DNA of 64,000 bases from an uncultured Methanosarcinales archaeon (lineage in GTDB: Archaea > Nanobdellota > Nanobdellia > Woesearchaeales > UBA583). Positions 10,821 through 38,348 of this stretch are shown one piece after another. The position numbers and the translations under genes were made by a program. The DNA lies in assembly GCA_964429995.1 (NCBI GenBank), contig CAYSDY010000002.1, positions 110,361-174,360 on the forward strand, written 5' to 3'. Under the pieces are notes generated by a model, which was not told the origin of the DNA, did no database searches, and worked only from the letters and a program-made list of their open reading frames with translations. Position 1 is the first letter of the stretch, and each line of letters starts with the position of its first letter.

Positions 10821-11948
10821 ATGCAGTTTATAGAATCATACAAATTTAAGCATAAAGATTGGAATCAAACAAAAATTAGAGTTTTGATTCACATGGTAAG
10901 AAATTTTGAACCTGAAAATCATAGACTATTTGCTCAAATGCTTTCAATGTTAGAACCTGAAAGCTCAAAGAAAATATTTGAAGAAATAAAAAATATGGGA
11001 GAGTATTTCAAAAGAATTATTGATATTGCAAATGTCGAAGATGAGAAGAATAATTTAGTTGAACAAATTTTAGCTTCAAAAAATGATTCAACAATTAATT
11101 CCACTGAAAGTTATGATGTATTGAGTATGTATAATAAATATAAAGAATCATTTTCTGAGTGGATGTTTACAAATAGAACTAAAAGGTATGCTACAAGTAC
11201 TGTAAATGAATGTTCTAAATTGTTTGCATGTGATGTTAAGAATATTTTAGATATTAGAAGAGAGATTGTAAATAATAAAAGCTTACCTCCTAGAACTAAT
11301 AATGCTTTTAGAGCTTTTTTGAATTTTGTAGAAGAAAAGACTCCAATTAGTCCGATTTTACTAAATGATTTAAGAGTATATATTAAAGGTGGTGTTGGAG
11401 AACATGTTGACAAGAGAGTTCCAACTAAGGAAGAAATTTTAAGATCAATTCAAACAATTAAAAGAGATTATTCCAATAACGATTTAATGCTTTATTATTT
11501 TTTATTTGAGTCAGGATGTAGATTTGAGGAACTTAAGAAAGTTATCTTAGAATTTGATTTTGATAAGTTTGTTGAAGGAGATGATTTTTCTTACTATAAA
11601 TTGTTTTGGAGAAGAGGAAAGAAGAACTCATTTATATTATTCTTTAGACCTGAAACTATAAAACATATTGTAGATAATTTAAAGATTTATCAAGATAATA
11701 CTTATTTAGAAAGGTTTAAAGATTGGCTTCAAGATAATCAAGATATTGAAAGTTCAAAGTATGTAAGAAAATTTACATTTACAGAAATGATTCATACTAG
11801 TGAGATTGATATAACTATTGCAAATCTGTTTCAGGGAAGAACAACAAAAGGAGACATTGGTGAGAAACATTACTTGGAATATGAAAGATTACTAGTTAAA
11901 TGGTATCCAAAATTTTTACCATTTGCAAAAGAAATTGAAGGTGAGTAA
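10821..11948 (+). CDS. int: Tyrosine recombinase / integrase
   Basis: C-terminal catalytic region has ESGCRFEEL (R) and RKFTFTEMIHTSE ... GRTTKGDIGEKHYLEY (H..R...Y). Paralogous to the integrase at 37283. Confidence 0.75.
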   Translation: MQFIESYKFKHKDWNQTKIRVLIHMVRNFEPENHRLFAQMLSMLEPESSKKIFEEIKNMGEYFKRIIDIANVEDEKNNLVEQILASKNDSTINSTESYDVLSMYNKYKESFSEWMFTNRTKRYATSTVNECSKLFACDVKNILDIRREIVNNKSLPPRTNNAFRAFLNFVEEKTPISPILLNDLRVYIKGGVGEHVDKRVPTKEEILRSIQTIKRDYSNNDLMLYYFLFESGCRFEELKKVILEFDFDKFVEGDDFSYYKLFWRRGKKNSFILFFRPETIKHIVDNLKIYQDNTYLERFKDWLQDNQDIESSKYVRKFTFTEMIHTSEIDITIANLFQGRTTKGDIGEKHYLEYERLLVKWYPKFLPFAKEIEGE

Positions 11949-12005
11949 AAGTCTTTAGAGACAACTTTATAAATAATCTTGTTATGAATATGTTAGGATA
12001 CAAAA

Positions 12006-13031
12006 ATGAAAGATTTAACAATCAAAGATGAAATTACTGAATTTATTATATATAAAGCACCTAATGAAGAAATTAAGGTAGAAGTATTTTTACATAATGA
12101 AACAGTCTGGTTAACGCAAAAAAGAATGTCGGAACTTTTTGATGTTGGAATCCCTGCAATTTCTAAACATTTAGATAATATTTATTCTGAAGGAGAATTA
12201 GATAAAGATTCAACTATTTCCATTTTGGAAACAGTTCAAAAGGAAGGAAATAGAGAAGTTAAAAGAAAACTCGAGTATTATAATTTAGATGTAATTATTG
12301 CAGTTGGTTATAGAGTTAATTCATATAGAGCAACTCAATTTAGAATTTGGGCAACAAAAATACTCAAAGAATACATTATTAAAGGATTTGCAATGGATGA
12401 TAAGAGATTAAAAAATCCTAATAATGTTTTTGGTAAGGATTATTTTGATGAACAATTAGAAAGAATACGAGATATAAGAAGTAGTGAGAGAAGATTCTAC
12501 CAAAAAATAACTGATATCTATTCTCAGTGTAGTGCTGATTATGATTCTAAATCTAAAATTACTGAAGATTTTTTTGCAATAGTTCAAAATAAACTACATT
12601 ATGCAATCTCTGGAAAAACAGCTGCAGAAATTATATATTCTAGAGCAAATAGTAAAGAACAAAATATGGGACTTACTTCTTGGAAAAATTCTCCTAAAGG
12701 AAAGATTAGAAAAACTGATATTAGTATTGCAAAGAATTACCTTAACAATGAAGAATTGGATTCATTAAATAGAATTGTATCAATGTATTTAGATTATGCT
12801 GAAATGCAAGCTAAAAAGCAAAATATAATGTATATGAAAGATTGGGTTAATAAATTAAATGCTTTTTTAAAATTTAATGAAAGGGAAATCTTACAAGATT
12901 TGGGCAAAGTTACTTCTGAGATTGCTAAAGAGTTTGCAGAAACAGAATTTGAAAAATATCGTATCATTCAGGATAGATTATTTAAGAGTGATTTTGATAA
13001 GTTAATTGAAAAAAGTAGAGATATAAAATAA
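12006..13031 (+). CDS. RhuM family virulence/cell-filamentation-like protein
   Basis: ETVWLTQKRMSELFDV, YYNLDVIIAVGYRVNS, ATQFRIWATKILKEYIIKGFAMDD are the characteristic RhuM blocks. RhuM genes are commonly RM-associated. Confidence 0.75.
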   Translation: MKDLTIKDEITEFIIYKAPNEEIKVEVFLHNETVWLTQKRMSELFDVGIPAISKHLDNIYSEGELDKDSTISILETVQKEGNREVKRKLEYYNLDVIIAVGYRVNSYRATQFRIWATKILKEYIIKGFAMDDKRLKNPNNVFGKDYFDEQLERIRDIRSSERRFYQKITDIYSQCSADYDSKSKITEDFFAIVQNKLHYAISGKTAAEIIYSRANSKEQNMGLTSWKNSPKGKIRKTDISIAKNYLNNEELDSLNRIVSMYLDYAEMQAKKQNIMYMKDWVNKLNAFLKFNEREILQDLGKVTSEIAKEFAETEFEKYRIIQDRLFKSDFDKLIEKSRDIK

Positions 13032-13953
13032 ATATTTTCAACATTGAATTTATGTTACCATGCTATATTGTAATAAGTTTTAGATAATTTATTTTTTTAT
13101 AAATTGTAATTTTTTATTTTTTAGTTGTTAATTAATGAATTTTGTTTGTTTGTGAATGTTTTTAGTGATTTTTTTTATTTTGCTAATTTTTTTTATCTCT
13201 ATGGAAGTTAATCGCCCCAAAAAGATTAGTTTTTATGTGGGTGTATTTTTGATGTTTTTTGAGGTGGGTTTGTTAATACATATATATGAAATTTTTGGAT
13301 TTTTGTGACAAAAGGAAAAGTTCATTTTTCTATTGATTTTTTAATTAAAAATTCAATTTGAAAAAATCTAAGTTTTTATTTGTTTTTTCAAGAAGTTATT
13401 AGGCATTAGTAATGTTAATTGCTATTTTTGGTGATTTTTTTTGAATTTATAGTGGCGTCTAGAAATAAGAGATAATTTTAAAATATATAAAATCGCCACT
13501 ATATGCCAAAAATGATATTTACTAGTATTTTTGAGTTTCTTAAAAATACTATTTAAATAGCATTTTTACTATATATGAATTTGAGTTTGGAAGCTTTCAG
13601 TTGTTTTCCCACCAAAATAGTTTTTTTTATGAGTTGGTTTTTTCTGTTTTTTGGATGTTTGCTCTGAGTATACATACTAAATCTGAAAATCGTGTTTTTA
13701 AATTATGGTTTTTTGGGATTGAAATAAAATTTTGTGAATAAAACAAAAGTTTGAAATTAGCTTCAAATTGAAGAGTTTTTGGTATTTTATGATAAGTTGT
13801 AGGTCAATTGAGAGTTTGTATTGAATTTTTAGGTTTGAAGTGGGTTAATTTGGGAATTGAAGTTAATAAAAAACTATTTATTTGCTGTCTTTAGTTATAA
13901 TAAGTAATAAAGTATTTAAATAAACTTAATTAAAAATTATTATATAATAAAAA

Positions 13954-16500
13954 ATGGCTAAAAAAAAAGTAAAACTTATTCCAGTCAAAGAAAAAACTAG
14001 TACTGATGATTTTAAAGATCAAGTTAAACAATATACTCATCAAGAATCTAAAAGGATTAATAACCCTCCTATTGGTTTAGTTACAGCAGAAACTGATAGT
14101 TTGAATGGAGTTAAAAAATATGAATATGATCCACATTTAAATCCTCAATTAGTTTGGGCTGGAAAGAAAGAAGGAATTAGTTTTGAAGTTGATACCGTTT
14201 CTCTTCATGTTCATGAAAGAATAGATCCATTATCTATTATTGAGAATGTGAAGAAAAGTGATGGTGAGATACAATTTTCTCTTTTCCATTATTTTGAAAA
14301 TGATAACAGACCTATAAGAGAAGCGATTGAATTTTATAAACACGAACAAAACTGGTCAAATAGATTAATTGCAGGAGATTCTTTGATTGTAATGAATTCT
14401 CTTCTTGAAAAAGAAGGAATGACTAGAAAAGTTCAGATGATTTACATTGATCCACCTTATGGAATTACTTATGGTTCTAATTTTCAACCATTTGTTAATA
14501 AACGAGATGTGAAAGATAGAAAAGATGAAGATTTAACTCAAGAGCCAGAAATGATTAAAGCATTTAGAGACACTTGGGAATTAGGGATTCATTCGTATTT
14601 AAGTTATTTAAGAGATAGATTAAAACTCTCAAAAGATTTATTGACTGATAGCGGAAGTTGTTTTGTTCAAATTTCTGATGAAAACTTACATCATGTAAGA
14701 GAAATAATGGATGAAGTTTTTGGTCCTGAGAATTTTGTTAGTCTGATTGCTTTTAAAAAAGGATTAGGATATTCTGAGAAATTTATTCCTTCTGTTTATG
14801 ATTATTTAATTGTTTATGCAAAGGATAAGACTCAGCAAAAATATAGAAAACCTCTTGTTTTTGATGACGAAGAGAATTTTATTACTTTTGGTTGGATTGA
14901 ATTACCTAATGGTGAAAGAAGAAGAGTTTCTAAAAAAAACGATTTTGTTAATGATAAATTTGTAACTAAAGGGAGATTATTTCAAACATCAACTTTAGTT
15001 TCTAAAGGTTCTGCTAAAGAATCACAAGAATATGAAATGGAAGGAACAAGATATTTCCCTTCGACAGGAACACATTGGAAAACAAAATGTCCTGAAGGAT
15101 TAAATAATTTGAAAAGTAAAAATCGTTTAATTGGCGTGAATAAAACTCTTGCTTTTGTAAGATTTAAAGAGGATTTCCCATATAAAATACCAACTAATGT
15201 TTGGGATGATACATTACAAAGTACATTTTCCTCTGATAAAGTCTATGTTGTACAAACTAATACTAAAGTTATTCAAAGATGTATTCTTATGACAACCGAC
15301 CCAGGAGATTTAGTATTAGATCCTACTTGTGGAAGTGGAACTACTGCATTTGTTGCAGAACAATGGGGAAGAAGATGGATAACTTGCGATACATCGAGAG
15401 TTGCTACAACACTAGCAAAACAAAGATTAATGACATCTATTTTTGATTATTATGAATTAGCTCATCAAAATGAAGGGATTAAATCTGGTTTCAAATACAA
15501 AACTGTTCCACATATTACTTTAGGTTCGATTGCAAATAACGAGCCAACAAATGAAGAAACTTTATACGACCAACCTTTTATTGACAAAAAGCGTAGAAGA
15601 GTTACTGGTCCTTTTACCTTAGAAGCTGTTCCATCTCAGAGAGTAACAAGTTTTGAAGATGTTGAACAAGCAATACAAGAACCTGATATGACAATTGCTC
15701 GTTCTGGAGAAACAATGAAACAGAACGATTGGATTGATGAAATGCTTGCAACAGGAATAAGAGGAAAAGCAGGACAAAAAATTGAATTTGTAAGAATAGA
15801 AACTCTTGGTGGAACAAGATGGGTTCATGCAGAAGCAGAGACTAAAGACGGACAAAAAGTAGTTATTTCTTTTGGTCCCCAATATGCACCATTAGAACAA
15901 AGGCAAGTAGAATTGGCAATTGAAGAATCTCAATCATTAGTTCCAAAACCAAAAATGATTATTTTTGCGTCATTCCAATTTGATCCTGAAGCAGCCAAAG
16001 ATATAGATGAGTTAAAATGGCCTGGAGTCAATATTCTAAAAGTTCAGATGAATACTGATCTCTTAACAAACGACTTAAAGAAAAAGCGTTCAAGTAGTGA
16101 ATCCTTCTGGTTAATGGGACAACCAGATATAGAAGTTAAAAAACAAAACGATAAATATGTTGTAGAAGTAAATGGATTTGATTATTATAACACAAAAACT
16201 GGTGAAATCGAATCTGGAGATTCTTCAAAAATTGCAATGTGGGAATTGGATACTGATTATGATGGAAGAAGTCTTTATCCAAGACAAGTGTTTTTTCCAA
16301 TGGCTGGAAGTGGAGAAGGTTGGGATAAACTCGCAAAAAACATTAAAGCAGTTATTGATGAAGAACTAATTGAACAATATAAAGGAAATATTTCAATCCC
16401 TTTCAAACTTGGTCCAAATAAAAGAATAGCTGTAAAAATTATTGATGATAGGGGAATCGAATCTTTAAAGATTGTGGAGATTAAAGATGGAAACAACTAA
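13954..16500 (+). CDS. mod: Type III restriction-modification system methyltransferase (Mod), N6-adenine/N4-cytosine class
   Basis: DPPYGITYG (motif IV) precedes LDPTCGSGTTAFVAEQWGRRWITCD (motif I), the beta-class order. 848 aa, with a long C-terminal extension. Confidence 0.85.
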   Translation: MAKKKVKLIPVKEKTSTDDFKDQVKQYTHQESKRINNPPIGLVTAETDSLNGVKKYEYDPHLNPQLVWAGKKEGISFEVDTVSLHVHERIDPLSIIENVKKSDGEIQFSLFHYFENDNRPIREAIEFYKHEQNWSNRLIAGDSLIVMNSLLEKEGMTRKVQMIYIDPPYGITYGSNFQPFVNKRDVKDRKDEDLTQEPEMIKAFRDTWELGIHSYLSYLRDRLKLSKDLLTDSGSCFVQISDENLHHVREIMDEVFGPENFVSLIAFKKGLGYSEKFIPSVYDYLIVYAKDKTQQKYRKPLVFDDEENFITFGWIELPNGERRRVSKKNDFVNDKFVTKGRLFQTSTLVSKGSAKESQEYEMEGTRYFPSTGTHWKTKCPEGLNNLKSKNRLIGVNKTLAFVRFKEDFPYKIPTNVWDDTLQSTFSSDKVYVVQTNTKVIQRCILMTTDPGDLVLDPTCGSGTTAFVAEQWGRRWITCDTSRVATTLAKQRLMTSIFDYYELAHQNEGIKSGFKYKTVPHITLGSIANNEPTNEETLYDQPFIDKKRRRVTGPFTLEAVPSQRVTSFEDVEQAIQEPDMTIARSGETMKQNDWIDEMLATGIRGKAGQKIEFVRIETLGGTRWVHAEAETKDGQKVVISFGPQYAPLEQRQVELAIEESQSLVPKPKMIIFASFQFDPEAAKDIDELKWPGVNILKVQMNTDLLTNDLKKKRSSSESFWLMGQPDIEVKKQNDKYVVEVNGFDYYNTKTGEIESGDSSKIAMWELDTDYDGRSLYPRQVFFPMAGSGEGWDKLAKNIKAVIDEELIEQYKGNISIPFKLGPNKRIAVKIIDDRGIESLKIVEIKDGNN

Positions 16501-19288
16501 TCATTTAATCATAAACAGCCCTTATGAAAAACCACAAAAACATCTAAAGTATTTAAGGGAAATTAGAAAATTTGAATTGGTTGAAGGAAGAAGACCTGCG
16601 GGCTATGTTGTTGCTTCAGAACATTCTAAGAGTTTTGATGATCCCGGTATTTTTGTTGAGTTAGAACTCGCAAATAGAATAAGAGAAAGAGTTCAAAAAT
16701 GGAAAGACAATAATTATCCCGGAATTTCATCAATAACTAAAGATTTACTTGAACATTGGAAAAATCAAGATAGAAATTTAAGGTTCTTTTTTTGTCAGAT
16801 TGAAGCAATTGAAACTTTAATTTGGTTAATCGAAGCTCCTGAAAGTGAGAAACAAGGAATTGAAATTCCGTTTGATGGGGGAGATATTCAAAGAATATGC
16901 TCCAAGATGGCAACTGGAACAGGAAAAACAATAGTTATGGCTATGTTAATTGCATACAACATAATAAATAAAGTTACTTATTCAAAAGATACACGATTCT
17001 CAAAAAATGTTCTTGTTGTTGCTCCAGGATTAACTGTAAAAAGTAGACTTCAAGTTTTACTTCCTGATGCTGATGATAATTATTATGAAGCATTTGATAT
17101 TGTACCGCAAGATTTGTATGATAAACTAAGACAAGGAAGAGTCAAGATAATTAACTGGCATTCTCTTGATTGGGATACTCAGGATAGAATTAACAAAAAA
17201 ATTGAGAATGGAACTCTTAGAACTGTTGATAAAAGAAAGAAAATTGAAATTAGTGATGAAGCATATATAAAAAATGTATTGGAAGAGTTGTCTGATGCAA
17301 AAAAAATTTTGGTTATTAATGACGAAGCACATCATGCTTGGCGAATTAATCCTGAAGCAAAAGGAAAATATCAACGAATTGGTGAAGATAAAGACAGTGC
17401 TGAAGAAGCAACAATTTGGATAAGTGGATTGGATAAAATAAATAAATCTAGAGGAATTATCCAATGTCATGATTTTTCTGCAACTCCTTTTTATCCTTCT
17501 GGTAAAAAAGTAGGGGAAGATCAGCTTTTTACATGGATTGTTAGTGATTTTGGACTAAATGATGCAATAGAGTCGGGACTAGTAAAAACTCCTAGAGTGG
17601 TTATTCGTGATGATGGAAAACTCGACAAAAAAATGAAATCTCGTTTTTACCATATTTATATGGATCCAACTGTTAAAAGTGATTTAAACAGAAGTGTTGA
17701 AGCAGAAGTTCCTCTTCCTGATTTAATTGTACAAGCTTATTATCATTTAGGAAAAGATTGGTTAGAAACACTAAAACTATGGAATAGTTCAAATCCTCCG
17801 TCTGAAGTTCCTCCAGTTATGATTACAGTTTGTAATAGAACCGAAACTGCTGCAAGAGTTGAAAATGCTTTTTTGAAAGGTAAAATAAAGATTGATGAAT
17901 TAAAAGATTCAAGTAAAACCTTGAGAATTGATTCAAAAATTTTATCTGAAGCTGAAACTAAAAAAAACACCACTGAGATTAATTCAGAAAATAAGCTATC
18001 TAAAGAAAAACAAGCAGAATTATTAAGACAGCAAGTTGATACTGTTGGAAAAAAAGGAATGCCTGGAGAACAAATCCAAAATGTAATTTCTGTTGGGATG
18101 TTATCTGAAGGTTGGGATGCAAAAACAGTAACTCATATCATGGGTCTGAGAGCATTTTCAAGTCAGTTATTATGTGAGCAAGTAGTCGGAAGAGGATTAA
18201 GAAGAGTCTCTTATGAAGTTGATGAAGAAACAGGACTATACAAACCCGAATATGTAAATATTTTCGGCGTTCCTTTTACATTCTTACCACACGAGGGCGG
18301 AGAAGATACTCCTCCGGAGCCACCTAAACCAAGAACTAGAATTTTTGTTGATGATATCAAAAAAGAACATGAAATAAAATGGCCCAACATAATTAGAATT
18401 AATCATGTATATTCTTCACAACTTCATTTAGATATGAAAAATGTTAAGAGAATAGAATTAAGACCAGAAGATACTCCTTTCAGAAGTGAACTTGCTCCTT
18501 TTTTGGAAGGAAAACCTGATAGCACCAAACTAAGTGAGATAAATCTGAGCGATGAAAAAATTGAAGAAATGTTAAAAGTCTTAAGGAAACAAAGACTTAT
18601 TTTTGAAATTGCAAGAGATATTTTTGATCAAGTAAAACCCAATTGGTCTGGCAAAAGGGAACATTTACTTATTCAAATAGTAAAAATTGTAGAAGATTTC
18701 ATAAATTCTAACAGGTTGATAATTAAAGGAGAAATCTATAAAGAGGATTTGAAAAAAAGATTATTAATTCTTCTTAATATGAATAAAATAGTACAACATT
18801 TATTTAATGCAATTAGATTTGAAAATACTGAAGAATTAGTTCCTATATATGATAAGGAAAAACCTATAAAATCAACTGCAAATATGATGACTTGGTACAC
18901 GACAAAACCTTGTGAACTTAATAGAAAATCACATATAAGTCACACAATATTTGATAGTACTTGGGAAGCAACAGAAGCATTTGAATTAGACAGAAATGAA
19001 AATATTGAGTCTTGGGCAAAAAATGATCATCTGAATTTTTATGTTAATTATGTATTTAATGGAGTTATTCATAAATATTATCCTGATTTCTTGATAAAAT
19101 TAAGAAATGGTAAAATGTTAGTATTAGAAGTAAAAGGATTAGATAGTCAACAGAATAAAACAAAAAGAGAATATTTCAAAGAATGGATAGATGCAGTAAA
19201 TAATGATGGTCGTTTTGGAGTTTGGGAATTTGATGTTTCTTTTAGACCTGCAGACATAAAAGACATTTTACAAAAACATTCTAAATAA
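16487..19288 (+). CDS. res: Type III restriction enzyme Res subunit (SF2 helicase + PD-(D/E)xK endonuclease)
   Basis: MATGTGKT (motif I), LVINDEAHHAW (DEAH), SEGWDAKTV...QVVGRGLRR (motif VI), C-terminal PDFLIKL...LVLEVKG. ATG at 16487 overlaps Mod by 14 nt. The ORF track's 16472 start is TTG. Confidence 0.85.
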   Translation: METTNHLIINSPYEKPQKHLKYLREIRKFELVEGRRPAGYVVASEHSKSFDDPGIFVELELANRIRERVQKWKDNNYPGISSITKDLLEHWKNQDRNLRFFFCQIEAIETLIWLIEAPESEKQGIEIPFDGGDIQRICSKMATGTGKTIVMAMLIAYNIINKVTYSKDTRFSKNVLVVAPGLTVKSRLQVLLPDADDNYYEAFDIVPQDLYDKLRQGRVKIINWHSLDWDTQDRINKKIENGTLRTVDKRKKIEISDEAYIKNVLEELSDAKKILVINDEAHHAWRINPEAKGKYQRIGEDKDSAEEATIWISGLDKINKSRGIIQCHDFSATPFYPSGKKVGEDQLFTWIVSDFGLNDAIESGLVKTPRVVIRDDGKLDKKMKSRFYHIYMDPTVKSDLNRSVEAEVPLPDLIVQAYYHLGKDWLETLKLWNSSNPPSEVPPVMITVCNRTETAARVENAFLKGKIKIDELKDSSKTLRIDSKILSEAETKKNTTEINSENKLSKEKQAELLRQQVDTVGKKGMPGEQIQNVISVGMLSEGWDAKTVTHIMGLRAFSSQLLCEQVVGRGLRRVSYEVDEETGLYKPEYVNIFGVPFTFLPHEGGEDTPPEPPKPRTRIFVDDIKKEHEIKWPNIIRINHVYSSQLHLDMKNVKRIELRPEDTPFRSELAPFLEGKPDSTKLSEINLSDEKIEEMLKVLRKQRLIFEIARDIFDQVKPNWSGKREHLLIQIVKIVEDFINSNRLIIKGEIYKEDLKKRLLILLNMNKIVQHLFNAIRFENTEELVPIYDKEKPIKSTANMMTWYTTKPCELNRKSHISHTIFDSTWEATEAFELDRNENIESWAKNDHLNFYVNYVFNGVIHKYYPDFLIKLRNGKMLVLEVKGLDSQQNKTKREYFKEWIDAVNNDGRFGVWEFDVSFRPADIKDILQKHSK

Positions 19289-20037: not shown

Positions 20038-20122
20038 AATTCTATCTAATTTAACACATTTTATATATTTTTCGCTTTATCTAAGAAGAATTACTTATAA
20101 AGTTTTAAAGATATTAGTATTT

Positions 20123-29244: not shown

Positions 29245-30693
29245 ATGATTGACTATAATAAAATAGAAACTATATTACAAACTTCAAAAGCTTTTGAGTT
29301 AATCAGAGTAAAGAATTTGCCTGAAATTCTTTCATTTTTATATAAAGAATTTAAGGAAGATAGTAATAGTACTTTAAAGTATGAAGAAGCCATAACTAAA
29401 CTTTCTAATTATTTAGATATATTGGAAAGTGAAAATGAAAATGATTTTTTAATTAGTAATTTTGAAAAAGCAAGAAAAGTATTAGACAAATGGTGTAAAA
29501 AAGAATTTTTGGTAAGGACTGAAGATTCTAAAGGTAATTGGAATATTTCTTTAACTCCTGAAACTAATAAAGTTATCTTGTGGATTGAAGATTTAGAAGA
29601 AAAAGATTTTATAGGTACTGAATCAAGGTTTCAACTTATATTTAATCAACTAAAAGATATAATTGAAAAAAGTACTTTAGATCCTGTTGAAAGAATAAAA
29701 CAATTAGAAGAAAGAAAAACTGAAATAGAAATAGAAATTCAAAATGTAAAAAATGGAATAATAAATCCTGTTGAGAATTATTTAATTCAAGAGATGTATG
29801 AAAATGTATTAAAAAATGCTAGAAGTTTAGTTTCTGATTTTTCAGAAGTTGAAAAAAATTTTAAAGAAATTATAAGTAAAATATATGAAGACCAAATTAG
29901 TCAAAAATATTCTAAAGGTTCAATTGTTATTAATACTTTTAATTCATTGGAAGCATTAAAAGAAAAAGATCAAGGAAAAAGTTTCTATGGATTTTGGCAA
30001 ATTTTATTTAATCAAAATGGTTCATCTCAATTAGATAAGTTAATTGGAGAAGTTCATTTAATTTTAGATGACAAGAAAATAAAAAATAAAGATTTCTTTT
30101 TAGAAGATCTTAGATTTCAATTACATGAAGCAGGGAAGAAAGTAATTGCTACAAATATTCTTTTAGCCGAAAGATTAAATAGGTTAGTAAACAACGAAAA
30201 TTTAAAAGAAAGTAAAAAAATATTTGAGACAATTAATGAGATTAAAAAATTAATGATTCAAAATGTTAATAATTCAAATAATATAAATAATTTAATGTGT
30301 ATAGAATTAAATCCTGAATTTAATTTTCCATTTGAAAGAAATCTTTTAGAATTAAGTTTTAAATCAAATATTAAAGAAATTATTTTACCTGAAATTAAAA
30401 TTAATCTGGAAGATATAAGTGAATTATTTTCATATGTTCCTGTAAATGAAACTGAGTTAAAAAATAGAATATTGGAACAAATAAAGGATAATAAAGAAAT
30501 TTCATTAGGGGAATTAACAAAGAATATCCCTATAGAGAAAGGAGTTGAAGAAATTTTAAAATATTATAGTTTAGCTTTAAATGATTTACAAAAGTTTTCA
30601 AATATTGATAATATTAATAAGGAGATAATTACTTTTGATTATAATAAACAAATAGGGTTAGAGGTACCTAAAATTATATTTACTAAAAATTAA
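29245..30693 (+). CDS. jetA: Wadjet JetA-like (MksF-like kleisin-type) protein
   Basis: 482 aa. It is the first of four overlapping genes whose sizes and order (482/196/1131/384 aa) match JetA/B/C/D. It has a coiled-coil middle and no catalytic motifs, as expected. Confidence 0.5.
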   Translation: MIDYNKIETILQTSKAFELIRVKNLPEILSFLYKEFKEDSNSTLKYEEAITKLSNYLDILESENENDFLISNFEKARKVLDKWCKKEFLVRTEDSKGNWNISLTPETNKVILWIEDLEEKDFIGTESRFQLIFNQLKDIIEKSTLDPVERIKQLEERKTEIEIEIQNVKNGIINPVENYLIQEMYENVLKNARSLVSDFSEVEKNFKEIISKIYEDQISQKYSKGSIVINTFNSLEALKEKDQGKSFYGFWQILFNQNGSSQLDKLIGEVHLILDDKKIKNKDFFLEDLRFQLHEAGKKVIATNILLAERLNRLVNNENLKESKKIFETINEIKKLMIQNVNNSNNINNLMCIELNPEFNFPFERNLLELSFKSNIKEIILPEIKINLEDISELFSYVPVNETELKNRILEQIKDNKEISLGELTKNIPIEKGVEEILKYYSLALNDLQKFSNIDNINKEIITFDYNKQIGLEVPKIIFTKN

Positions 30694-30694
30694 A

Positions 30695-31285
30695 ATGGAA
30701 AATAATGATACTAATTATGATGAAAAATCTATATATTCTGAAACTCTAATAAAATTACTTAAAGGTATTTTGTATAATGATGATGTTAATGCCTGGGATA
30801 ATTTAAGAATTTTTCAAAAAGATATAAGAAATTATTTTTTAAAAATAAATCTTGAATTAATTATTGATGAAGATAAAGGTTTTGCTTTTTTAAAACAAAT
30901 TGAAAATGATGAAAATAAAAATAATTTGCCAAAATTAATTAATAAAACTTCTTTAGGCTATGATTTAACTTGTTTTTTAGTAATATTGAGAGAATGGTTA
31001 GAAGATTTTAAGAAAAATTCAGCAAATTTATCAACTTTATATATTTCTGAAGAAGATATAAAGGAAAGAATCGAGTATTTTTTTAAACATAATACTGATG
31101 GTTTGCAATTAATTAAAAGAATTAAACATTTAATAAAAGAAACAATAAAATTAGGATTTATAAAAGAAATTAATAATTCAATAGAATTAAAATATGAAGT
31201 AAAAAGAAGTCTAGAAGCTAAAGTCAATGTTGATTTTCTAGAAAATTTTAAGGAGGAATTAGAGAAGAATGGAACTGAAAATTAA
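30695..31285 (+). CDS. jetB: Wadjet JetB-like (MksE-like) protein
   Basis: 196-aa acidic protein. N-terminal LIKLLKGILYNDDVNAWDNL...EDKGFAFLKQ resembles the conserved JetB/DUF4194 block. 1-nt gap to jetA and overlap with jetC. Confidence 0.5.
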   Translation: MENNDTNYDEKSIYSETLIKLLKGILYNDDVNAWDNLRIFQKDIRNYFLKINLELIIDEDKGFAFLKQIENDENKNNLPKLINKTSLGYDLTCFLVILREWLEDFKKNSANLSTLYISEEDIKERIEYFFKHNTDGLQLIKRIKHLIKETIKLGFIKEINNSIELKYEVKRSLEAKVNVDFLENFKEELEKNGTEN

Positions 31286-34200
31286 AGAATATGATGATTC
31301 CATTAGTGGTTTCAGATTAAATTTTATTGAAGTATATAATTGGGGTTTATTTCATGGAAATGTTCAAAGAATTAATCCTAATAGTAAAAGTTCAATTTTA
31401 TTGGGAGAAAATGGAGCAGGTAAGACAACATTAGTAGATGCAATTCAAACTATATTAGTTCCAAACAAATTAAGAGCATATAATCAATCTTCAGGAGCAG
31501 AGAATAAAAAAGATAGAAATGAGATTACATATATTCAAGGAAAATATGGAGAAATTAAAAATAATGAAACTGATAATAGTATAACTGAACAGTTTCTAAG
31601 AACTGAAAAAGGTGAGATATATTCTGTACTTCTGGCTTCTTTCTCAAATTTAGATAAAAAAGAAATATATACTTTAATTCAAATATTATGGTTTGGAAAA
31701 AATGGAATAAAAAAATTATATATTGTTTCAAATAAAGAATTAACTATTGATAATGATATTAGACCTTTTAATAATGATGCTAAATGGAGAAGAGATTTTC
31801 AAAAAGAATATGAGAAAAATCTAGTTTTATTTGAATTAGATAACTCTGGAAAATATTTTCATTTAATTCAAAAAATATTTGGATTAAGATCTGAAAAAGC
31901 TTTGAGTTTATTTTCAAAAACTATAGGAATAAAAGTTTTAGGTAGTCTAGATGAATTTATTAAGAATGAAATGATTGAAGATTATAACACAGAAGAAGAA
32001 TTTAGAGAATTGCATAAACATTATTTATCTTTATTATCTATTCATAAATCTATTCAAAAAGCGAAAAAACAAATTCTATTGTTAAAACCAATATTTGAAG
32101 AAAATAATGAACTTGAAAAAATAAATACTGAATTAAATAAAGTTCTTTTAATTGAAGAAAATATTGAACTATATTTTCAAAAGATTAAACTGGCAAAATT
32201 AATTGAAAATTCTGAATTAATAAATAAAGAAATTGTTAAAATTAAAATAGAGGTTAATAATATTATAGAAAGAATTAATAAATTTAAATTAAAAGAAAAA
32301 GAATTAGAAACAATGATTAATTCAGATGAACAAGGCAAATTAATAATTAATATTGATTCTCGAATTGAGAGTTTAAAAATAGAACAAAAAAAAGTACATT
32401 TTAAACATCAATCTTATATAGAACTTTGTGATCTTGTTGGAATAAATATTAATAATCTAAATGAAGAAAAATTTATTATTAATAATAATAAAATAAAACA
32501 AGAAATTGTTTTAGTAAATTCAGAATATGAGAAGAAAAAAGAAGAATGGGCTGATAAAAGAAATGAAGTTGAAAATTTAAGTACAAATATTAAAGATATT
32601 AGTGAAGAATTAAGTTCATTAGAAAACAGAAAAAACAAAATTGATTATAATTTGATAAAAGTTAGACATAAAATAATAACAGAATTAGGATTAAAAGAAT
32701 TAGAAATACCATTTGTTGGAGAATTAATTAAAGTAAAAGATTCGGAAAAAGATTGGGAGAAAGCAATTGAAATTGCATTAAGAAGTTTTGCTTTAAAACT
32801 AATAGTTCCTGAGAAACATTATTCAAAAGTAAATAAATATATAAAAACAACATTTTTAAACGAAAAAATTTCATATTACAAAGTTAATGATAATTTTATA
32901 ACTAATATTGAAGAACATGATAAAACTAAGTTTTTAATAAATAAAGTTGAAATCAAGGATGATACGCAATATTTTAATTGGATAAAATATAATATTTCTA
33001 GATACTATAATTACATTTGTACTGAAAATTTAGAAGAATTTGAGAAAGAGGATAAGGCAATAACTAAAGAAGGATTATTAAGAGATTATAATAAACATCA
33101 AAAAGATGACCGTAAAAATTTATTTGATAAAAGTAAATTTATATTGGGATGGAATAATGAAGATTTACTTAAAATTAAAAAAAACGAATTAGAATTTATA
33201 CGGAACCAACAAAAATTATTGAAAAGTGAAGAAATTGATTTTAAGAATCAATTATTAGCATTGGAAAATAAAAAAGAAACATTAAACGATTTAATTAAAT
33301 ATGATAATTATGAAATAGTTGATTTTAATTCAATTCTTATTGAGATTAGTAATTTAGAAAAAAATAAATTAAAAGTACAAAAGAATAATTCGAAAATAGA
33401 TGATTTTCAAAATCAATTAGAAAAAACTAAAGAAAAAATTGAAATAAATGATAAAAATAGAATAGATAAATTAAGTAAACAAAAGAACTTTGAAGATAAT
33501 TTAAATTTAATAAATGAAAAAATTGAATCAATTAAAATAATAGTTGAAAATTCTAAGTTAAATTTTGATATAGAAAAACTAATTGAAGAATTTTTAGAGA
33601 TTAATATTCTCAATTGGAATTTAAATAATTTTGAATCAAATCAAAGATTTGAAGAAAAGAAAATACAGCATTTAAAAGAAAAATTAAGAGAAGAAATAGA
33701 TAATAAATCTAAAAAAATTTTAGAATTAATGTCTGAATATAGAAATCCTAAAGATCAAAAAATACATGAGGATTTTCCAGAATGGATTGGTGAAAATAGT
33801 TTTCTTTCGATTAAAGTTGATTATTTATATGAATATATTGATAAATATAAAAAAATTGAATGTGAAGAATTGCCTGATGCAGAAGAACAATTTGAGAGAA
33901 TATTTGAAGAATCTATAATCTTTAAAATGGCTGATTTTCAAGAAGAATTGGAAAAAAGAAGAAAAAAAATAATAGAGAGTATTAGAGAATTAAATTTATC
34001 ATTAGAAAAAATAGATTTTACTTCATTTCCACAAACTTATATTAAAATAAATGAAGAGACAACCAACAATGAGTATATAAAAAAATTTAGAGAAGAACTT
34101 AGAGATTGGAAACCTAATGCAGGAGGTTTAAGTAGAGGTTACAATAAAGATGCATATGAAGAAAGCTTTAATAAAATTAAAATGTTAATAAATAAATTAT

Positions 34201-34664
34201 CAACTAATGATAATTATAGAAAATTTGTTATGAATGTTAAAAATTGGTTTACATTTTCAGTAAATGAATATTGTAGAGATGATAATTATTTAAGAAGGGT
34301 ATATCAAAGTACTAGTGAACTTTCAGGAGGAGAGAAAGCTCAATTAACATATGCAATATTAGGAGCTTCATTATCATATCAATTTAACATTGAGAAAGGT
34401 ATTAAATCTCAAAATTCATTTCGTTTTGTAATAGTAGATGAAGCATTTAGTAAACTTGATAATATTAAATCTAAATATTTGATGGAATTAATTAAAAAAT
34501 TACATTTACAAGTTTTAATAGTTACTCCTAATGAAAAGATGCATGTCGCTCAAGATTATGTTCAAAATGTTCATTATATAAATAAAAATGATAATATTTC
34601 CACTATAATGAATATGCCATATATTGAATTTGATAAATTAATAAATAAAAATGAAAATCTCTGA
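31269..34664 (+). CDS. jetC: Wadjet JetC-like SMC-family ATPase (MksB-like)
   Basis: N-terminal LLGENGAGKTTL (Walker A). About 800 aa of K/E-rich coiled coil. C-terminal LSGGEKAQLTYAILGA (ABC signature) and FRFVIVDEAFSKLD (Walker B). Confidence 0.75.
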   Translation: MELKIKEYDDSISGFRLNFIEVYNWGLFHGNVQRINPNSKSSILLGENGAGKTTLVDAIQTILVPNKLRAYNQSSGAENKKDRNEITYIQGKYGEIKNNETDNSITEQFLRTEKGEIYSVLLASFSNLDKKEIYTLIQILWFGKNGIKKLYIVSNKELTIDNDIRPFNNDAKWRRDFQKEYEKNLVLFELDNSGKYFHLIQKIFGLRSEKALSLFSKTIGIKVLGSLDEFIKNEMIEDYNTEEEFRELHKHYLSLLSIHKSIQKAKKQILLLKPIFEENNELEKINTELNKVLLIEENIELYFQKIKLAKLIENSELINKEIVKIKIEVNNIIERINKFKLKEKELETMINSDEQGKLIINIDSRIESLKIEQKKVHFKHQSYIELCDLVGININNLNEEKFIINNNKIKQEIVLVNSEYEKKKEEWADKRNEVENLSTNIKDISEELSSLENRKNKIDYNLIKVRHKIITELGLKELEIPFVGELIKVKDSEKDWEKAIEIALRSFALKLIVPEKHYSKVNKYIKTTFLNEKISYYKVNDNFITNIEEHDKTKFLINKVEIKDDTQYFNWIKYNISRYYNYICTENLEEFEKEDKAITKEGLLRDYNKHQKDDRKNLFDKSKFILGWNNEDLLKIKKNELEFIRNQQKLLKSEEIDFKNQLLALENKKETLNDLIKYDNYEIVDFNSILIEISNLEKNKLKVQKNNSKIDDFQNQLEKTKEKIEINDKNRIDKLSKQKNFEDNLNLINEKIESIKIIVENSKLNFDIEKLIEEFLEINILNWNLNNFESNQRFEEKKIQHLKEKLREEIDNKSKKILELMSEYRNPKDQKIHEDFPEWIGENSFLSIKVDYLYEYIDKYKKIECEELPDAEEQFERIFEESIIFKMADFQEELEKRRKKIIESIRELNLSLEKIDFTSFPQTYIKINEETTNNEYIKKFREELRDWKPNAGGLSRGYNKDAYEESFNKIKMLINKLSTNDNYRKFVMNVKNWFTFSVNEYCRDDNYLRRVYQSTSELSGGEKAQLTYAILGASLSYQFNIEKGIKSQNSFRFVIVDEAFSKLDNIKSKYLMELIKKLHLQVLIVTPNEKMHVAQDYVQNVHYINKNDNISTIMNMPYIEFDKLINKNENL

Positions 34665-35805
34665 GAAAATAATTAATACTAGTAAGAATAAATATTTGGA
34701 CTTTTTAAAAAGTATTATATTAAAAGATGAGAATTTTTTCCCATTAAGATTAAGAATAAAATTGCCACATCCAAAAAATAATTATTTAGAATTTTATGAG
34801 ACAATGAAGGAAATAAATTCCAAATCAAAAGAATCAATAAAATATGGTTATTTAATTTCTTTTAATCCTGGAATAAAAACTAGAGATGCAGGGACTCAAG
34901 ATATTCCTAATTCAGTTTTTTTTGAATCTGAAAAAGATTATTTATCATTTTTAAATAAAGAACAGGAAGTTAATCAATTTAAAAAAGATTTTAAGTTAAT
35001 TTTAACAAAGTATCCTGAATTGAAATCATGGATTGAAAGATTTCCAATTAAAATAATTAATTCAGCAGGATTATGGCATGATATATTGAAGGTCTGTGAT
35101 TATTTTTATTTGAACCCTAAACCTAATTTATATATTAGGGAATTGCCAATACAAGTTCATACTAAATTTATTGAAAATAATGAAGCAATAATTAGAGAAT
35201 TGTTAGACATATTAATTAGTAATGAAATTAACTCTTTAGAATTTGATTTTAAAAAAAGATTTAACTTAAAGTATGATCAATTTTTAATCAGAGTTAAAGT
35301 TTTGGATAAGAACATACTTTTGAAAAATAATTTGAATAACTCTTTTTTAGATTTTAGTTTACCACTAGATTTATTTGAGAAATTAAATTTAAATGTTGAT
35401 AAAGTATTTATTGTTGAAAATAAGATGAATTTTTTAACTTTCCCAAATATTGAAAATTCAATAATCATATCAGGTTCAGGGAATGGAGTCAATATTTTAA
35501 AGAATTCTTCTTGGCTTAATGAAAAACAAATTTATTATTGGGGTGATATAGATTCTCATGGTTTTGCAATTCTTTCAAGTTTTAAAAAATATTTCTCAAA
35601 TATAAAATCATTATTTATGGATTTTAAAACATATGATACATTTAAAGAGTTTGAAGTAAAAGGAGAAAAAACAGTTCAAGAAACTTTTTCTAATTTAACT
35701 GATGAAGAATTAAAAGTATTTAATTATGTTCATAGTAATAATTTAAGATTAGAGCAAGAAAGAATTTCTCAAGAATATATTATTAATAATTTGAAAAATG
35801 AATAA
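34651..35805 (+). CDS. jetD: Wadjet JetD-like protein with C-terminal Toprim domain (MksG-like)
   Basis: 384 aa. VFIVENKMNF (Toprim Glu) and YYWGDIDSHGFAI (DxD) lie in the C-terminal half. Overlaps jetC by 14 nt. Confidence 0.6.
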   Translation: MKISEKIINTSKNKYLDFLKSIILKDENFFPLRLRIKLPHPKNNYLEFYETMKEINSKSKESIKYGYLISFNPGIKTRDAGTQDIPNSVFFESEKDYLSFLNKEQEVNQFKKDFKLILTKYPELKSWIERFPIKIINSAGLWHDILKVCDYFYLNPKPNLYIRELPIQVHTKFIENNEAIIRELLDILISNEINSLEFDFKKRFNLKYDQFLIRVKVLDKNILLKNNLNNSFLDFSLPLDLFEKLNLNVDKVFIVENKMNFLTFPNIENSIIISGSGNGVNILKNSSWLNEKQIYYWGDIDSHGFAILSSFKKYFSNIKSLFMDFKTYDTFKEFEVKGEKTVQETFSNLTDEELKVFNYVHSNNLRLEQERISQEYIINNLKNE

Positions 35806-36958
35806 ACAACAACTATACCTAAAAAAGATTGAAAATGATGTTAATGAGAAAATATATGATTTGTTAATTCAACATCTAAAAGATGTTCATAAAGTACTTC
35901 CTAGAACTGATGATAATAAAGATTATTTAAGAGAGTTAAATAAACATCTATTCAAAGCATTAGAAGATTTAAAACAAACAAATAGATTTAACTACTTACA
36001 AAACTATAGACACTCAATTCTTATTATAAATACTATTCTTAGCTATAAACCTGATGAGAAACATCTAAAAGAAGTTAAGCTTTCAATATTAAATAGATTT
36101 TCCTCAGATATTATTTACGATAAAAAAGAGAAGATTCCATTAAAGTCTCAAATGACTGAACTTAGAATTACTTATGATACTAGCTATTTAATCTATCTTT
36201 TAGAAAAAGTTTTCATACCAAAAGAGATGTGGGATAAGGCAATGTATTGTTTAATTGCAATAGAATTAGTAGAACCAGATCATAACGATATTGATAAATT
36301 TAAAGAAATAATCACAAAACATCTAAAAAAAGAAGAATTAAAATATAAAGAATTTGAAGAACCTAAAGACTATATTATTCTTTTAGATACAAATATTATT
36401 TTAAATAAAGTATTATATGATGTTGGAGAATATAAAATATCTCATAACAAATTAGAAGAGTATAACTCTTTGATGGAAAAATGGGGAAATAACAATAAGT
36501 TTGTAATAACTAACTCTATAAAAGAAGAGTTAGACAAACAAATTAAATTTTCAATTGATACAGTAAACGATGTTTGTTCTAAGTTTAAACATTTTAATAA
36601 AAATGAAATTATTACAACACTTGAAAAGAGGTTTAATAATTTAATAAAAAAATATGCAATTGCAATAGAAGATAAACAATATGATTTAACAAATATTGAA
36701 AAATTCTACTCAAATTACTTAGGAAACTTATATGAAATAACTTTAGATAAAATCGAAAACAAGAAGTTATCTAAAAAATTAAAAAAACTCTCAGATAGGG
36801 AAGGTTTGCTTCCAGAAATAGGAGATCTGAAACTTTTAGCAGATGCAATTGAACTTAAGAAATCTAATTCAAAGGTAGCAATACTTTCAAATGATAAAGA
36901 CTTGTATTTATTTAATGAACAATTAGAAAAAGAATTTGGAATAAGAATTTACAAATAG
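35798..36958 (+). CDS. PIN-domain nuclease with long N-terminal helical extension, translationally coupled to jetD
   Basis: C-terminal domain has YIILLDTNIIL, KEELD, LLADAIE and LSNDKDL, the four acidic positions of PIN domains. Its ATG overlaps the jetD stop by 8 nt. Confidence 0.55.
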   Translation: MNKQQLYLKKIENDVNEKIYDLLIQHLKDVHKVLPRTDDNKDYLRELNKHLFKALEDLKQTNRFNYLQNYRHSILIINTILSYKPDEKHLKEVKLSILNRFSSDIIYDKKEKIPLKSQMTELRITYDTSYLIYLLEKVFIPKEMWDKAMYCLIAIELVEPDHNDIDKFKEIITKHLKKEELKYKEFEEPKDYIILLDTNIILNKVLYDVGEYKISHNKLEEYNSLMEKWGNNNKFVITNSIKEELDKQIKFSIDTVNDVCSKFKHFNKNEIITTLEKRFNNLIKKYAIAIEDKQYDLTNIEKFYSNYLGNLYEITLDKIENKKLSKKLKKLSDREGLLPEIGDLKLLADAIELKKSNSKVAILSNDKDLYLFNEQLEKEFGIRIYK

Positions 36959-36989
36959 GATTCAAAACTCTAACAAATAACAACCTAAA

Positions 36990-37030
36990 GCACTTTTACC
37001 AATAATTGTGCATTCTAAAAATTTCTTTTT
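36990..37030. repeat. Copy 2 of ~40-nt imperfect direct repeat (see 5662..5701)
   Basis: gcacttttaccaataattgtgcattctaaaaatttctttttt here versus gcaaatttaccaattattgtgcatttaagtaatttcttttg there. Confidence 0.5.
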
Positions 37031-37282
37031 TAGTAAGTCTGGATTTATTCCCTTAGCAGAAACTCTAAAACTTTCAAATTTATCATTTAAGAGAAATTTT
37101 CCTCTCTTCTCAGATTCAAATTCCACATATCTTGTCGTTTTCATAATATTTCTAAAAATTTGGTTATTTTTAACACTTTGCAAAGACCATCAACCTAAAT
37201 TTGAGCCACTTATAGCCAAGATAATGAGAGAAATATTTCAGAACAAGTCTTAGTCTTAAAATGTCAAAAAAGTCTTCAAATA

Positions 37283-38203
37283 TCAATGTTTAATCACCTC
37301 TAACACTTTTTCATATTCTTTTACTGCAATCTCTTTTTTGTTTAAATAATGAGTCATTCCAACATTTTTTGAAGTTGACCTTCCAGATATGAAGTTTGCT
37401 ATTTCAATTGCAACTCCTGCTTTAACCATTAAAGTAAATGAATACTTTCTTAGATATTTTAAATGAACTATTTTCTTATTATCTTGAGTATGATCTACAA
37501 ATCTATTGAAGTATGTTTTATCAAATTTGCCAATATGTTTTTTTAATTCATTATATAATTCTAATGTGAAGAATAAATAATAAGATGATTTCTGACCTCT
37601 TAAATAGAAATTATTGTAAGTAACTATGCCGTTTTCATGTATTTCTATGTTTTTTTCATCAAAATTTTCAAAGAAATGTTTAACTTCTGTTGTCCTAGCT
37701 GTTGTTTCAATATAGAATCTATATAATAAATAATGTAATCGATCATACTTAGAGACTTCTTTTACAGAGTTTTTAATTTCCAAACATGTTGGAATATAAG
37801 TATCAATATGAACTTCATTGTGAATTTTAATTCTTCTTCGGATATTTTCAATTATATCTAAGTCTAATATATCAAACTCTTCTAAGTAATTCAGCCATAC
37901 TCTAATTGCAACTCCTCCTTGTCTTTTGTTAATTTTTTCAAGAGCAATAGCATTTTTAATCTCTTCAATAGTATTAACACCAATCTCTTCAAACAATTTA
38001 GTTAGACAATTAAAAACAGATACTGCGTAAGTTCTTGTGAACTTTTTTAAAGTATATACTTTATATTCATTTTTTGTCTTAAAGTATATACTTTTTAATT
38101 TTATAAAATTTTGATTTTTTGGCGTAAAATTTTCTAGATTTCGAGAAATTTGCTGTTGATTAGAAATTTGAGAGGAGGCGTATTTGCCCCCTAGAGACGC
38201 CAA
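37283..38203 (-). CDS. int: Tyrosine recombinase / integrase (second paralog); reading frame is open through the adjacent tRNA-Ser gene, start undefined
   Basis: C-terminal RKYSFTLMVKAG...GRSTSKNVGMTHYLN (H..R...Y) and IETTARTTEV (R). The ORF track's longest frame (37283..38326) begins at a TTG inside the tRNA duplicate and reads through the tRNA. There is no ATG/GTG/TTG downstream of the tRNA until about residue 98. Relative to int 10821, the protein lacks about 60 N-terminal residues. Confidence 0.65.
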   Translation of the reverse strand: MASLGGKYASSQISNQQQISRNLENFTPKNQNFIKLKSIYFKTKNEYKVYTLKKFTRTYAVSVFNCLTKLFEEIGVNTIEEIKNAIALEKINKRQGGVAIRVWLNYLEEFDILDLDIIENIRRRIKIHNEVHIDTYIPTCLEIKNSVKEVSKYDRLHYLLYRFYIETTARTTEVKHFFENFDEKNIEIHENGIVTYNNFYLRGQKSSYYLFFTLELYNELKKHIGKFDKTYFNRFVDHTQDNKKIVHLKYLRKYSFTLMVKAGVAIEIANFISGRSTSKNVGMTHYLNKKEIAVKEYEKVLEVIKH

Positions 38204-38279
38204 GACAGGGATTTGAACCCTGAATTCCGAAGGAACTACATTAGCAGTGTAGCGCAATACCGAGTTATGCGATCTTGGC
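38198..38279 (-). tRNA. tRNA-Ser (anticodon GCU), no encoded CCA
   Basis: Minus-strand sequence gccaaga..ctaca-ctGCTaa-tgtag, long variable arm ttccttcggaatt, T-arm cagggttcaaatccctg, acceptor tcttggc plus discriminator g. The 7-bp acceptor and 5-bp anticodon stems pair perfectly. Confidence 0.8.
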
Positions 38280-38308
38280 ATTAGGTCTCTTTTTTTAGTC
38301 GCCGCCGG

Positions 38309-38348
38309 ATTAGCAGTGCTGCGCAATACCGAGTTATGCGACCTTGGC
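38309..38348 (-). repeat. Tandem partial duplicate of tRNA-Ser 5-prime half (acceptor/D-arm/anticodon loop, ~40 nt, 3 mismatches)
   Basis: Reads gccaaggtcgcataactcggtattgcgcagcactgctaat on the minus strand, versus gccaagatcgcataactcggtattgcgctacactgctaat in the tRNA. It lies 29 nt upstream of the tRNA 5-prime end. It is a likely att remnant. Confidence 0.55.

Follow-up and report, generated by a model that had tools for sequence, protein, structure and literature searches.

A split SSV-type integrase beside tRNA-Ser marks a probable decayed, integrated element serving as a defence island in a DPANN archaeon

The closest described relatives of the locus reported here are elements with SSV-type (type I, 'suicidal') integrases, whose defining property is an attachment site (att) lying inside the integrase gene itself (PMC8371274), and which include SSV1, the pTN3 and TKV elements and the pT26-2 family (PMC8371274; Badel et al. 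2020, PMC7253208). The review of these systems presents suicidal integrases as belonging to hyperthermophiles and a small number of euryarchaeal orders, naming Sulfolobales, Thermococcales, Archaeoglobales, Methanococcales and Methanosarcinales as hosts and leaving DPANN archaea unmentioned (PMC8371274). Here we analyse a 64,000-nucleotide stretch of contig CAYSDY010000002.1 (the window) from a low-GC (~25%) DPANN archaeon that is Woesearchaeales-like, its nearest genomes being labelled Nanoarchaeia, Woesearchaeota and Iainarchaeum. The window holds an island of roughly 27 kb, made up largely of conflict-related genes, between two inward-facing integrase genes, Int1 at 10821–11948 (+) and Int2 at 37283–38152 (−), the latter lying next to a tRNA-Ser(GCU) gene. 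The region is probably an integrated element of the SSV-type, suicidal-integrase class that has decayed, seems to be locked into the chromosome of its DPANN host and acts there as a defence island. The suicidal integrase family is known, and we found no prior report of it for this host group.

The resemblance to SSV-type elements comprises a PF16795 catalytic domain, an element attachment site (attP) inside the integrase open reading frame (ORF), a tRNA target and a junction at the anticodon loop, together with the apparent splitting of the integrase into N- and C-terminal fragments, Int(N) and Int(C), at the element borders, apparent trapping after integration and Int(C) relics beside tRNA genes. 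Unlike those elements, the locus has a low-GC DPANN host, a ribbon-helix-helix (RHH)-like N-terminal domain, a second, unsplit paralogous integrase in head-to-head arrangement, what appears to be a complete, element-borne tRNA, a truncated host tRNA and defence cargo in place of virus or plasmid genes. Bacterial tRNA-linked genomic and defence islands provide a second comparison, sharing an integrase beside a tRNA gene, a composition that deviates from the host, and defence cassettes (restriction-modification (R-M), Wadjet, McrBC, toxin-antitoxin) exchanged between conserved anchor genes; in contrast to those islands, the locus uses an archaeal type of integrase with its self-splitting logic and has kept no direct repeat at its flanks. 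The evidence suggests traits that make the locus a variant within a known family, namely the pairing of integrases, a complete tRNA carried by the element, and the combination of an RHH-like domain with palindromes.

Both integrases match PF16795 ('Archaeal phage integrase'; E=2e-24 for Int1, E=2e-26 for Int2), are 32% identical to each other over 272 aa (E=7e-34) and align at the conserved R, K, R and HY catalytic positions, consistent with the original prediction of two paralogous, inward-facing tyrosine recombinases. The Int2 catalytic domain additionally matches the SSV1 integrase structures 3uxu, 3vcf and 4dks at E~1e-12. Int1 is an intact paralogue without an embedded tRNA-like site, and the idea that it carries a tRNA-type attP of its own was rejected, as its 5' region contains no GC-rich segment (maximum GC 0.375 in 40-nt windows). 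Int2, which had been taken for a complete recombinase, is an Int(C) fragment (37283–38092, −), the C-terminal portion, including the catalytic domain, of an SSV-type integrase. Specifically, homology to Int1 begins at residue 79 of the extended Int2 frame (~38092), leaving ~100 N-terminal Int1 residues without a counterpart in Int2; no start codon (ATG, GTG or TTG) is found between the tRNA and the conserved part; and the frame remains open through the tRNA and even through the partial tRNA copy beyond it (copy B, described below), as it is open through the tRNA in the related loci L010 and L009. Because of this missing start and open frame, the 332-aa Int2 that gene callers predict from ATG 38281 is a fragment fused to a translated tRNA, and an annotated "332-aa integrase" at this position should be understood as an integrase fragment plus a tRNA read as protein. 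Int(C) is 83% identical at the amino-acid level in L010 and 73% in L009, where the linker is 68 nt longer. Its conserved part evolves under strong purifying selection (ratio of non-synonymous to synonymous substitution rates, dN/dS, of 0.04–0.13 against the relatives), and the linker part of the same open frame (38093–38197, −) is weakly constrained (dN/dS 0.25–1.2).

Full-length homologues display the integrase in unsplit form. P0011, P0012 and P0015 (345–364 aa) consist of an RHH-like N-terminus of ~50 aa, a tRNA-like stretch and then the part homologous to Int2, with the tRNA 3'-half sequence lying inside the ORF in antisense orientation in P0012 and in sense orientation in P0015. At the level of the loci, L013 carries a sense T-arm and acceptor end inside its integrase ORF, and in L012 the embedded stretch is antisense and reaches from the anticodon loop as far as the 3' end. 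On these sequence grounds, Int1 and Int2 belong to the SSV-type 'suicidal' integrase family. The elements carrying full-length homologues measure ~10–11 kb, and L012 has a terminal overlap of 80 nt, indicating a circle. These small elements (L012 and L013–L017, from JGI metagenomes) also encode a bAvd-like gene (a diversity-generating retroelement accessory gene) and a DUF5906 protein, and L015 and L016 additionally encode a classical PF00589 recombinase.

The two integrase fragments are distributed between the window and its relatives: Int(C) lies at the tRNA border in the window, and Int(N) with its att is found in the relatives L025, L026 and L030–L032. Int(N) is composed of the RHH-like domain and, after it, the 3' half of the tRNA, beginning at the anticodon loop; in four relatives its distance upstream of the Int1 homologue ranges from 137 nt to 1.6 kb. 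In L026, which is 92% identical to the window in DNA sequence, the minus strand presents a palindromic motif, an ATG with a 58-aa RHH-like domain, ACTGCTAAT, the tRNA-Ser 3' half and then ~100 nt of the Int2 linker, this Int(N) being positioned 1.6 kb upstream of an Int1 homologue with a nucleotidyltransferase–HEPN pair between them. L025, L030, L031 and L032 have the same Int(N) and tRNA 3' half followed by unrelated host DNA, forming a clean element-host junction (attR), and in L030 (NCBI genome GCA_020637525.1) Int(N) is located 137 nt from a divergently oriented Int1 homologue. An Int1 homologue is linked to the Int(N) of a split integrase in all five loci. When the Int(N) of a relative is joined to the window sequence, a single uninterrupted ORF results with each of the two anticodon loops, 380 aa long in one case and 403 aa in the other. 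The inward geometry of the integrases is accounted for by this head-to-head arrangement of Int(N) and Int1, because neighbours on a circle would be carried to opposite ends upon integration.

Within the window, the Int(N)-att end is absent. Int(N) was not found in the window when the Int1 N-terminus, the RHH domains of distant homologues and the L026 Int(N) were used as queries, and it is also absent from the 10 kb further left. The earlier failure to find the tRNA 3' half at the left is borne out: a 25-mer search allowing <=3 mismatches returned no second copy, local alignment of four variants of the 3' half produced top scores equal to those of shuffled sequence, and the 3' half is also absent from L018, the adjoining 10 kb on the left, so that ~48 kb left of the tRNA are covered in all. 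The proposed att-like bracketing does not hold, since the left att (Int(N) plus tRNA 3' half) is missing here and the only repeat is the adjacent 5'-half copy; with the left att missing, the island would have no normal route of excision. An intact, still mobile element, with both integrases complete and a second att just outside the examined sequence, is correspondingly improbable. Although both catalytic domains keep R...K...R...Y under purifying selection and the gene callers' ATG would give Int2 a start, the N-terminus so predicted is tRNA read as protein, whereas real family N-termini are RHH-like and are encoded beside Int1 in relatives; moreover, the place upstream of Int1 that should hold this part is occupied here by unrelated genes, and no att copy occurs within ~48 kb. 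Outside these loci, the tRNA 3' 25-mer matched nothing in viral contigs and only unrelated organisms in metagenome contigs, and protein scans of viral contigs with Int(N) and Int(C) gave no matches. Two contigs of a fermentation metagenome, from a different, higher-GC organism (L020 1–860 and L022 257–287), carry an orphan tRNA-Ser 3' end of 27–31 nt identical to the window's tRNA, which in L020 lies ~800 nt from another tRNA 3' end and may be a tiny relic of an integrated element.

At the right border, which had been placed correctly at tRNA-Ser, two tRNA-derived segments lie in tandem. The intact tRNA-Ser(GCU) gene (tRNA_A; 38196–38280, −) is the single tRNA in the window according to both ARAGORN (38196–38280) and Rfam (38198–38279, 55.8 bits) and appears to be element-borne. 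Copy B (38309–38348, −) is probably a truncated 5' half of the host tRNA-Ser(GCU), running from the acceptor stem to the anticodon loop, and would constitute the host-element junction (attL). The tandem partial duplicate that had been described is real (38309–38352 matches 38240–38283 over 44 nt at 91%, with a spacing of 69 nt); instead of being a further att site, it probably derives from the host tRNA, whose 5' half was severed. Copy B stops exactly after the anticodon loop CTGCTAAT, and it is at this same sequence that tRNA homology starts after Int(N) in the relatives. Between copy B and the intact tRNA lies a spacer of 25–29 nt (38280–38308, −), identical in L027 and likewise probably element-borne. 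The A7:T66 pair and the CTACA/TGTAG anticodon stem of tRNA_A differ from copy B in a compensated way, and in its acceptor stem, GCCAAGG, copy B agrees with the tRNA of L003, a distant relative.

The locus L027 helps to place the junction. Its Int(C) is 98% identical to that of the window, and the two share only window positions 36953–38344 (~1.39 kb, 96% identity), comprising copy B from about its position 8, the spacer, the tRNA, Int(C) and a 73-aa ORF. Both flanks of L027 differ, with a TreT-like gene replacing aS21 on one side and McrBC plus a helicase-nuclease replacing a 386-aa gene and Wadjet on the other. The boundary of homology falls inside the copy B acceptor stem, which reads GCCAAGG in the window and GCTGAGG in L027, and the L027 copy B (GCTGAGG...CAGCA, loop) is complemented exactly by an attR half (loop, TGCTG...CCTCAGC) present in L032, from the same sample, and in L030. 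Because of this complementarity, copy B and the attR half are probably two pieces of a host tRNA, and the DNA between them, including the intact tRNA, would have come with the element. The 69-nt spacing equals 23 codons and keeps the frame, fitting an integrase gene that contained a complete tRNA, possibly acquired by imprecise excision; L009 and fragment P0035 represent a variant with neither the insertion nor copy B. A local tandem duplication or a decaying host pseudogene, unrelated to integration, could account for two copies only 69 nt apart and for the more decayed state of copy B in L010. It is nonetheless a very remote explanation, given that the duplication ends at the loop where tRNA homology begins after Int(N), that the sequence upstream of copy B is not duplicated, and that the window/L027 boundary lies inside an acceptor stem whose L027 version is matched so exactly by an attR half from the same sample.

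The perfect 14-bp palindrome AAAGTATATACTTT marks both integrase halves. It occurs twice in the window (38049–38062 and 38081–38094), against 0.12 copies expected, and recurs as two copies in every Int(C) locus and as one copy, 8 nt upstream of the ATG, in every Int(N) locus. The reading frame differs between these copies in the window (KSIYF in one, KVYTL in the other), so that the constraint on them acts on the DNA. In a rebuilt attP, the palindromes would flank the core by ~150–190 nt on each side, making them candidate arm-type sites that are perhaps bound by the RHH-like domain, which itself weakly matches BrnA (E=9e-5). The arrangement resembles that of a lambda-type attP, in which a core is flanked at ~150–190 nt by repeated protein-binding motifs on both sides, and the resemblance may go no further than layout; unlike the lambda-type site, the whole attP would here lie inside coding sequence.

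Conserved ends enclose a variable interior. The left-hand element module (10755–13953, +), comprising Int1, RhuM and a 920-nt non-coding stretch, is 92–96% identical in L025 and L026, and it is followed by a type III R-M system in the window versus a type I system in L025 and L030. At the other end, what comes after Int(C) and its small ORF is the 386-aa gene plus Wadjet in the window, the 386-aa gene plus a HEPN–nucleotidyltransferase pair in L010, and McrBC in L027. Rather than a coherent unit, the cargo is a mosaic of exchangeable cassettes, as judged by its composition and by the differing cargo of the relatives. This mosaicism raises the alternative of a defence island that is not mobile and was assembled piece by piece at a tRNA hotspot, with the integrases as unrelated relics of two separate elements. 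Heterogeneous composition (GC ~31% in the type III R-M genes against ~20% in Wadjet, the most compositionally deviant segment), cargo that differs completely between relatives sharing the integrases, the remnant of another element at 4804–5701 and the tandem integrations suggested by L026 would all fit such a history. It remains unlikely, because the Int1–Int(N) linkage in five relative loci, one of which (L032) comes from the same sample as the 98%-identical Int(C) of L027, favours a single two-integrase backbone with exchangeable cargo.

The preferred reading, that of a decayed suicidal-integrase element, would proceed as follows. In the circular form, the Int1 and Int2 genes would have stood head to head, Int1 without an internal attachment site and Int2 encoding, in order, the RHH-like N-terminal domain, a tRNA-Ser-like segment, the linker and the catalytic domain, with attP within the reading frame; the integrase gene of this element lineage would have carried a complete tRNA-Ser by way of an in-frame 69-nt insertion. 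Int2 would then have been split by recombination with the host tRNA-Ser(GCU) gene at its anticodon loop, with Int(C) staying beside the tRNA at the right and Int(N), together with the host tRNA 3' half, moving to the far end beside Int1. The host 5' half would have been left as a dead stub (copy B), the working tRNA being supplied by the element. Later, the defence cassettes between the two conserved ends would have been exchanged, and in this genome the Int(N)-att end would have been replaced by an unrelated gene cluster; as a consequence of that replacement, Int2 could not be rebuilt nor the host tRNA restored, leaving the island presumably fixed in the chromosome.

Several observations weigh against this account. 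In the frameshifted Int(N)-att-linker remnant of L026, Int(N) is joined directly to the 3' half of the tRNA and the linker, the 69-nt insertion being absent, so that the form with a complete tRNA inside the integrase gene is a proposed one; the same remnant suggests tandem integrations in this lineage. Instead of being lost, the Int(N)-att part could have ended up at another place in the genome, by an inversion for example, and the strong purifying selection acting on Int(C) could reflect a function retained by the fragment. Neither a free circular form nor an intact Int2 gene of this lineage was found. Nor was a same-species genome with an empty site, exact-protein look-ups of the flanking genes having returned only island-bearing contigs of the same structure.

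The comparison of the tRNA-Ser locus in relatives, called for by the original prediction, gave a divided answer. In the distant relative L003 (Taw1 56% identical), tRNA-Ser, aS21, cyclophilin and Taw1 follow one another without an integrase or island, and all contigs of the same population carry the island. A profile of 3-mer composition was similarly divided, showing a sharp break at 37–38 kb and none at 10.8 kb, with the whole of 1–37 kb deviating from the right flank. The housekeeping genes to the right are as described (aS21, cyclophilin, Taw1, the CCA-adding enzyme, SMC, phosphoglycerate kinase and aIF2-gamma, the last at 62007–63224), the integrases, the tRNA-Ser with its partial duplicate and most of the cargo are present where they had been placed, and the region as a whole is DNA derived from a mobile element integrated at tRNA-Ser.

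The left end is less simply delimited. The window remains collinear with L030 and L026 across Int1 and RhuM, and all three diverge from one another at the same nucleotide, ~10755, which lies 66 nt upstream of Int1 and near 10820, one of the left boundaries first proposed; accessory and element-derived DNA continues left to ~4804. Outward from ~10755, L030 continues into Int(N) and L026 into a HEPN gene and a nucleotidyltransferase with Int(N) beyond them; in the window, a peptide-maturation-like cluster (5707–10754, −) occupies the place of the relatives' Int(N)-att. This tightly packed operon encodes a 309-aa protein, a C39-like peptidase fused to a mobile domain of phosphoenolpyruvate (PEP)-utilising enzymes, a PPDK_N-like ATP-binding protein (the two forming a split PEP-utilising kinase), a radical S-adenosylmethionine (rSAM)/SPASM enzyme, a 216-aa protein and a His_Phos protein, and a 36-aa small-peptide ORF (MENTEKVLWQLACVAYGGIKADIKESQKITRSKRRIK) lies upstream at ~10586–10696. 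It looks like a peptide-maturation cluster of the ribosomally synthesised and post-translationally modified peptide (RiPP) kind, and only its His_Phos gene is common to L026.

Further left lies the remnant of a second, related element end (4804–5701, +), whose gene order agrees with that of the right end and of L010: 17 terminal codons from a paralogue of the 386-aa gene (4804–4860), a nucleotidyltransferase gene (4916–5548), a truncated HEPN gene (5532–5648) and a 3' remnant of the 73-aa ORF (~5664–5701). Two candidate att features in this area were rejected: the 59-nt repeat 4810–4868/36907–36965, proposed as an att pair, is the 3' end of the diverged paralogous gene, with no gene body on the left, and the alignment score of the hairpin 4783–4812, considered as a tRNA T-arm remnant, does not exceed that of shuffled sequence. 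At 1223–4657 (−), a 1144-aa secreted protein without a Pfam match has an N-terminal third extremely rich in Cys, Glu and Asp and a Kazal-like Cys pattern at its C-terminus.

The cargo itself is mostly conflict-related, as had been anticipated, with Pfam or PADLOC support for RhuM, the type III Mod and Res proteins, SNase, RmuC, the GHKL ATPase, the Cas4-like nuclease, the UvrD-nuclease and Wadjet. RhuM (12006–13031, +) is separated from the type III genes by the 920-nt stretch (13032–13953), which contains no convincing ORF and has no Rfam match; it is 94–96% identical in L025 and L026, above the value for the adjacent Int1 gene, with the exception of a 112-nt indel at 13451–13563. The type III R-M system (13954–19288, +) consists of adjacent Mod (13954–16500; PADLOC MTase_III 2e-153, Pfam N6_N4_Mtase) and Res genes (16472–19288; Pfam ResIII 6.5e-12, and weakly PADLOC REase_III). 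It is followed by a gene for a 214-aa protein (19393–20037, −) with weak CARF (PADLOC, E=7e-8) and winged helix-turn-helix matches, the only minus-strand cargo gene, for which no CRISPR-Cas or cyclic-oligonucleotide partner is visible, and by plus-strand genes, recognised by profile matches within 19393–21797, for a 103-aa SNase-like protein and RmuC.

A block of five plus-strand genes (21868–29243) then encodes a GHKL ATPase with an HExxH motif, a 472-aa protein, a PD-(D/E)xK Cas4-like nuclease, a 163-aa protein and a UvrD helicase–PD-(D/E)xK fusion of AddA/RecB-like type, and corresponds to none of the named defence systems. Another AddAB-like pair, consisting of a 961-aa UvrD-PD-(D/E)xK protein and an 880-aa PD-(D/E)xK protein, is encoded by the host ~6 kb left of the window start (L018 10170–15485), so that the helicase-nuclease genes of the island are extra copies. 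The 69-nt intergenic sequence upstream of the GHKL gene (21807–21875) is 81% identical to one upstream of McrB in L027 (14407–14473); the genes around it are unrelated between the two loci, and it may represent a shared promoter or a cassette junction.

Adjoining this block is a complete type I Wadjet system (29245–35805, +), all four genes of which form one operon: JetA (29245–30693), JetB (30695–31285), JetC (31269–34664) and JetD (34651–35805), identified by PADLOC as JetA1 (4e-105), JetB1 (4e-50), JetC1 (2e-267) and JetD1 (7e-133) and by Pfam through DUF3375, DUF4194/MksE, SMC-like domains and JetD_C. The 386-aa protein that follows (35798–36958, +) is 89% identical in L010. Its earlier assignment as a PIN protein is not upheld, as it contains only short PIN-like motifs (LLDTN, SNDKD), has no Pfam, PADLOC or NCBIfam match, and gives an unusable AlphaFold model (predicted local distance difference test score, pLDDT, 38). 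The 73-aa ORF (36962–37183, −), conserved in L010 and L027, adjoins Int(C). In the right flank, the phosphoglycerate kinase is fused to a PfkB-family carbohydrate kinase in a single 709-aa ORF (59778–61907).

Collectively, the locus and its relatives show the suicidal integrase family active in low-GC DPANN archaea, moving large defence arsenals (Wadjet, R-M, McrBC) between genomes of ~1 Mb. The architecture further raises the ideas that a second integrase could rescue excision, that an island which has captured a complete tRNA could thereby become locked into its host, and that attP may consist of palindromic arm sites inside coding sequence. As a more speculative proposal, which we hold to be rather doubtful, Int1, unsplit after integration, would catalyse or assist excision, the element's tRNA would make the host dependent on it, and the RHH-like domain would read the palindromes as arm sites. 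If this were true, Int1 would solve the 'suicide' problem from within the element, and integration, by destroying the host copy of the tRNA, would leave the host dependent on the element that it carries.

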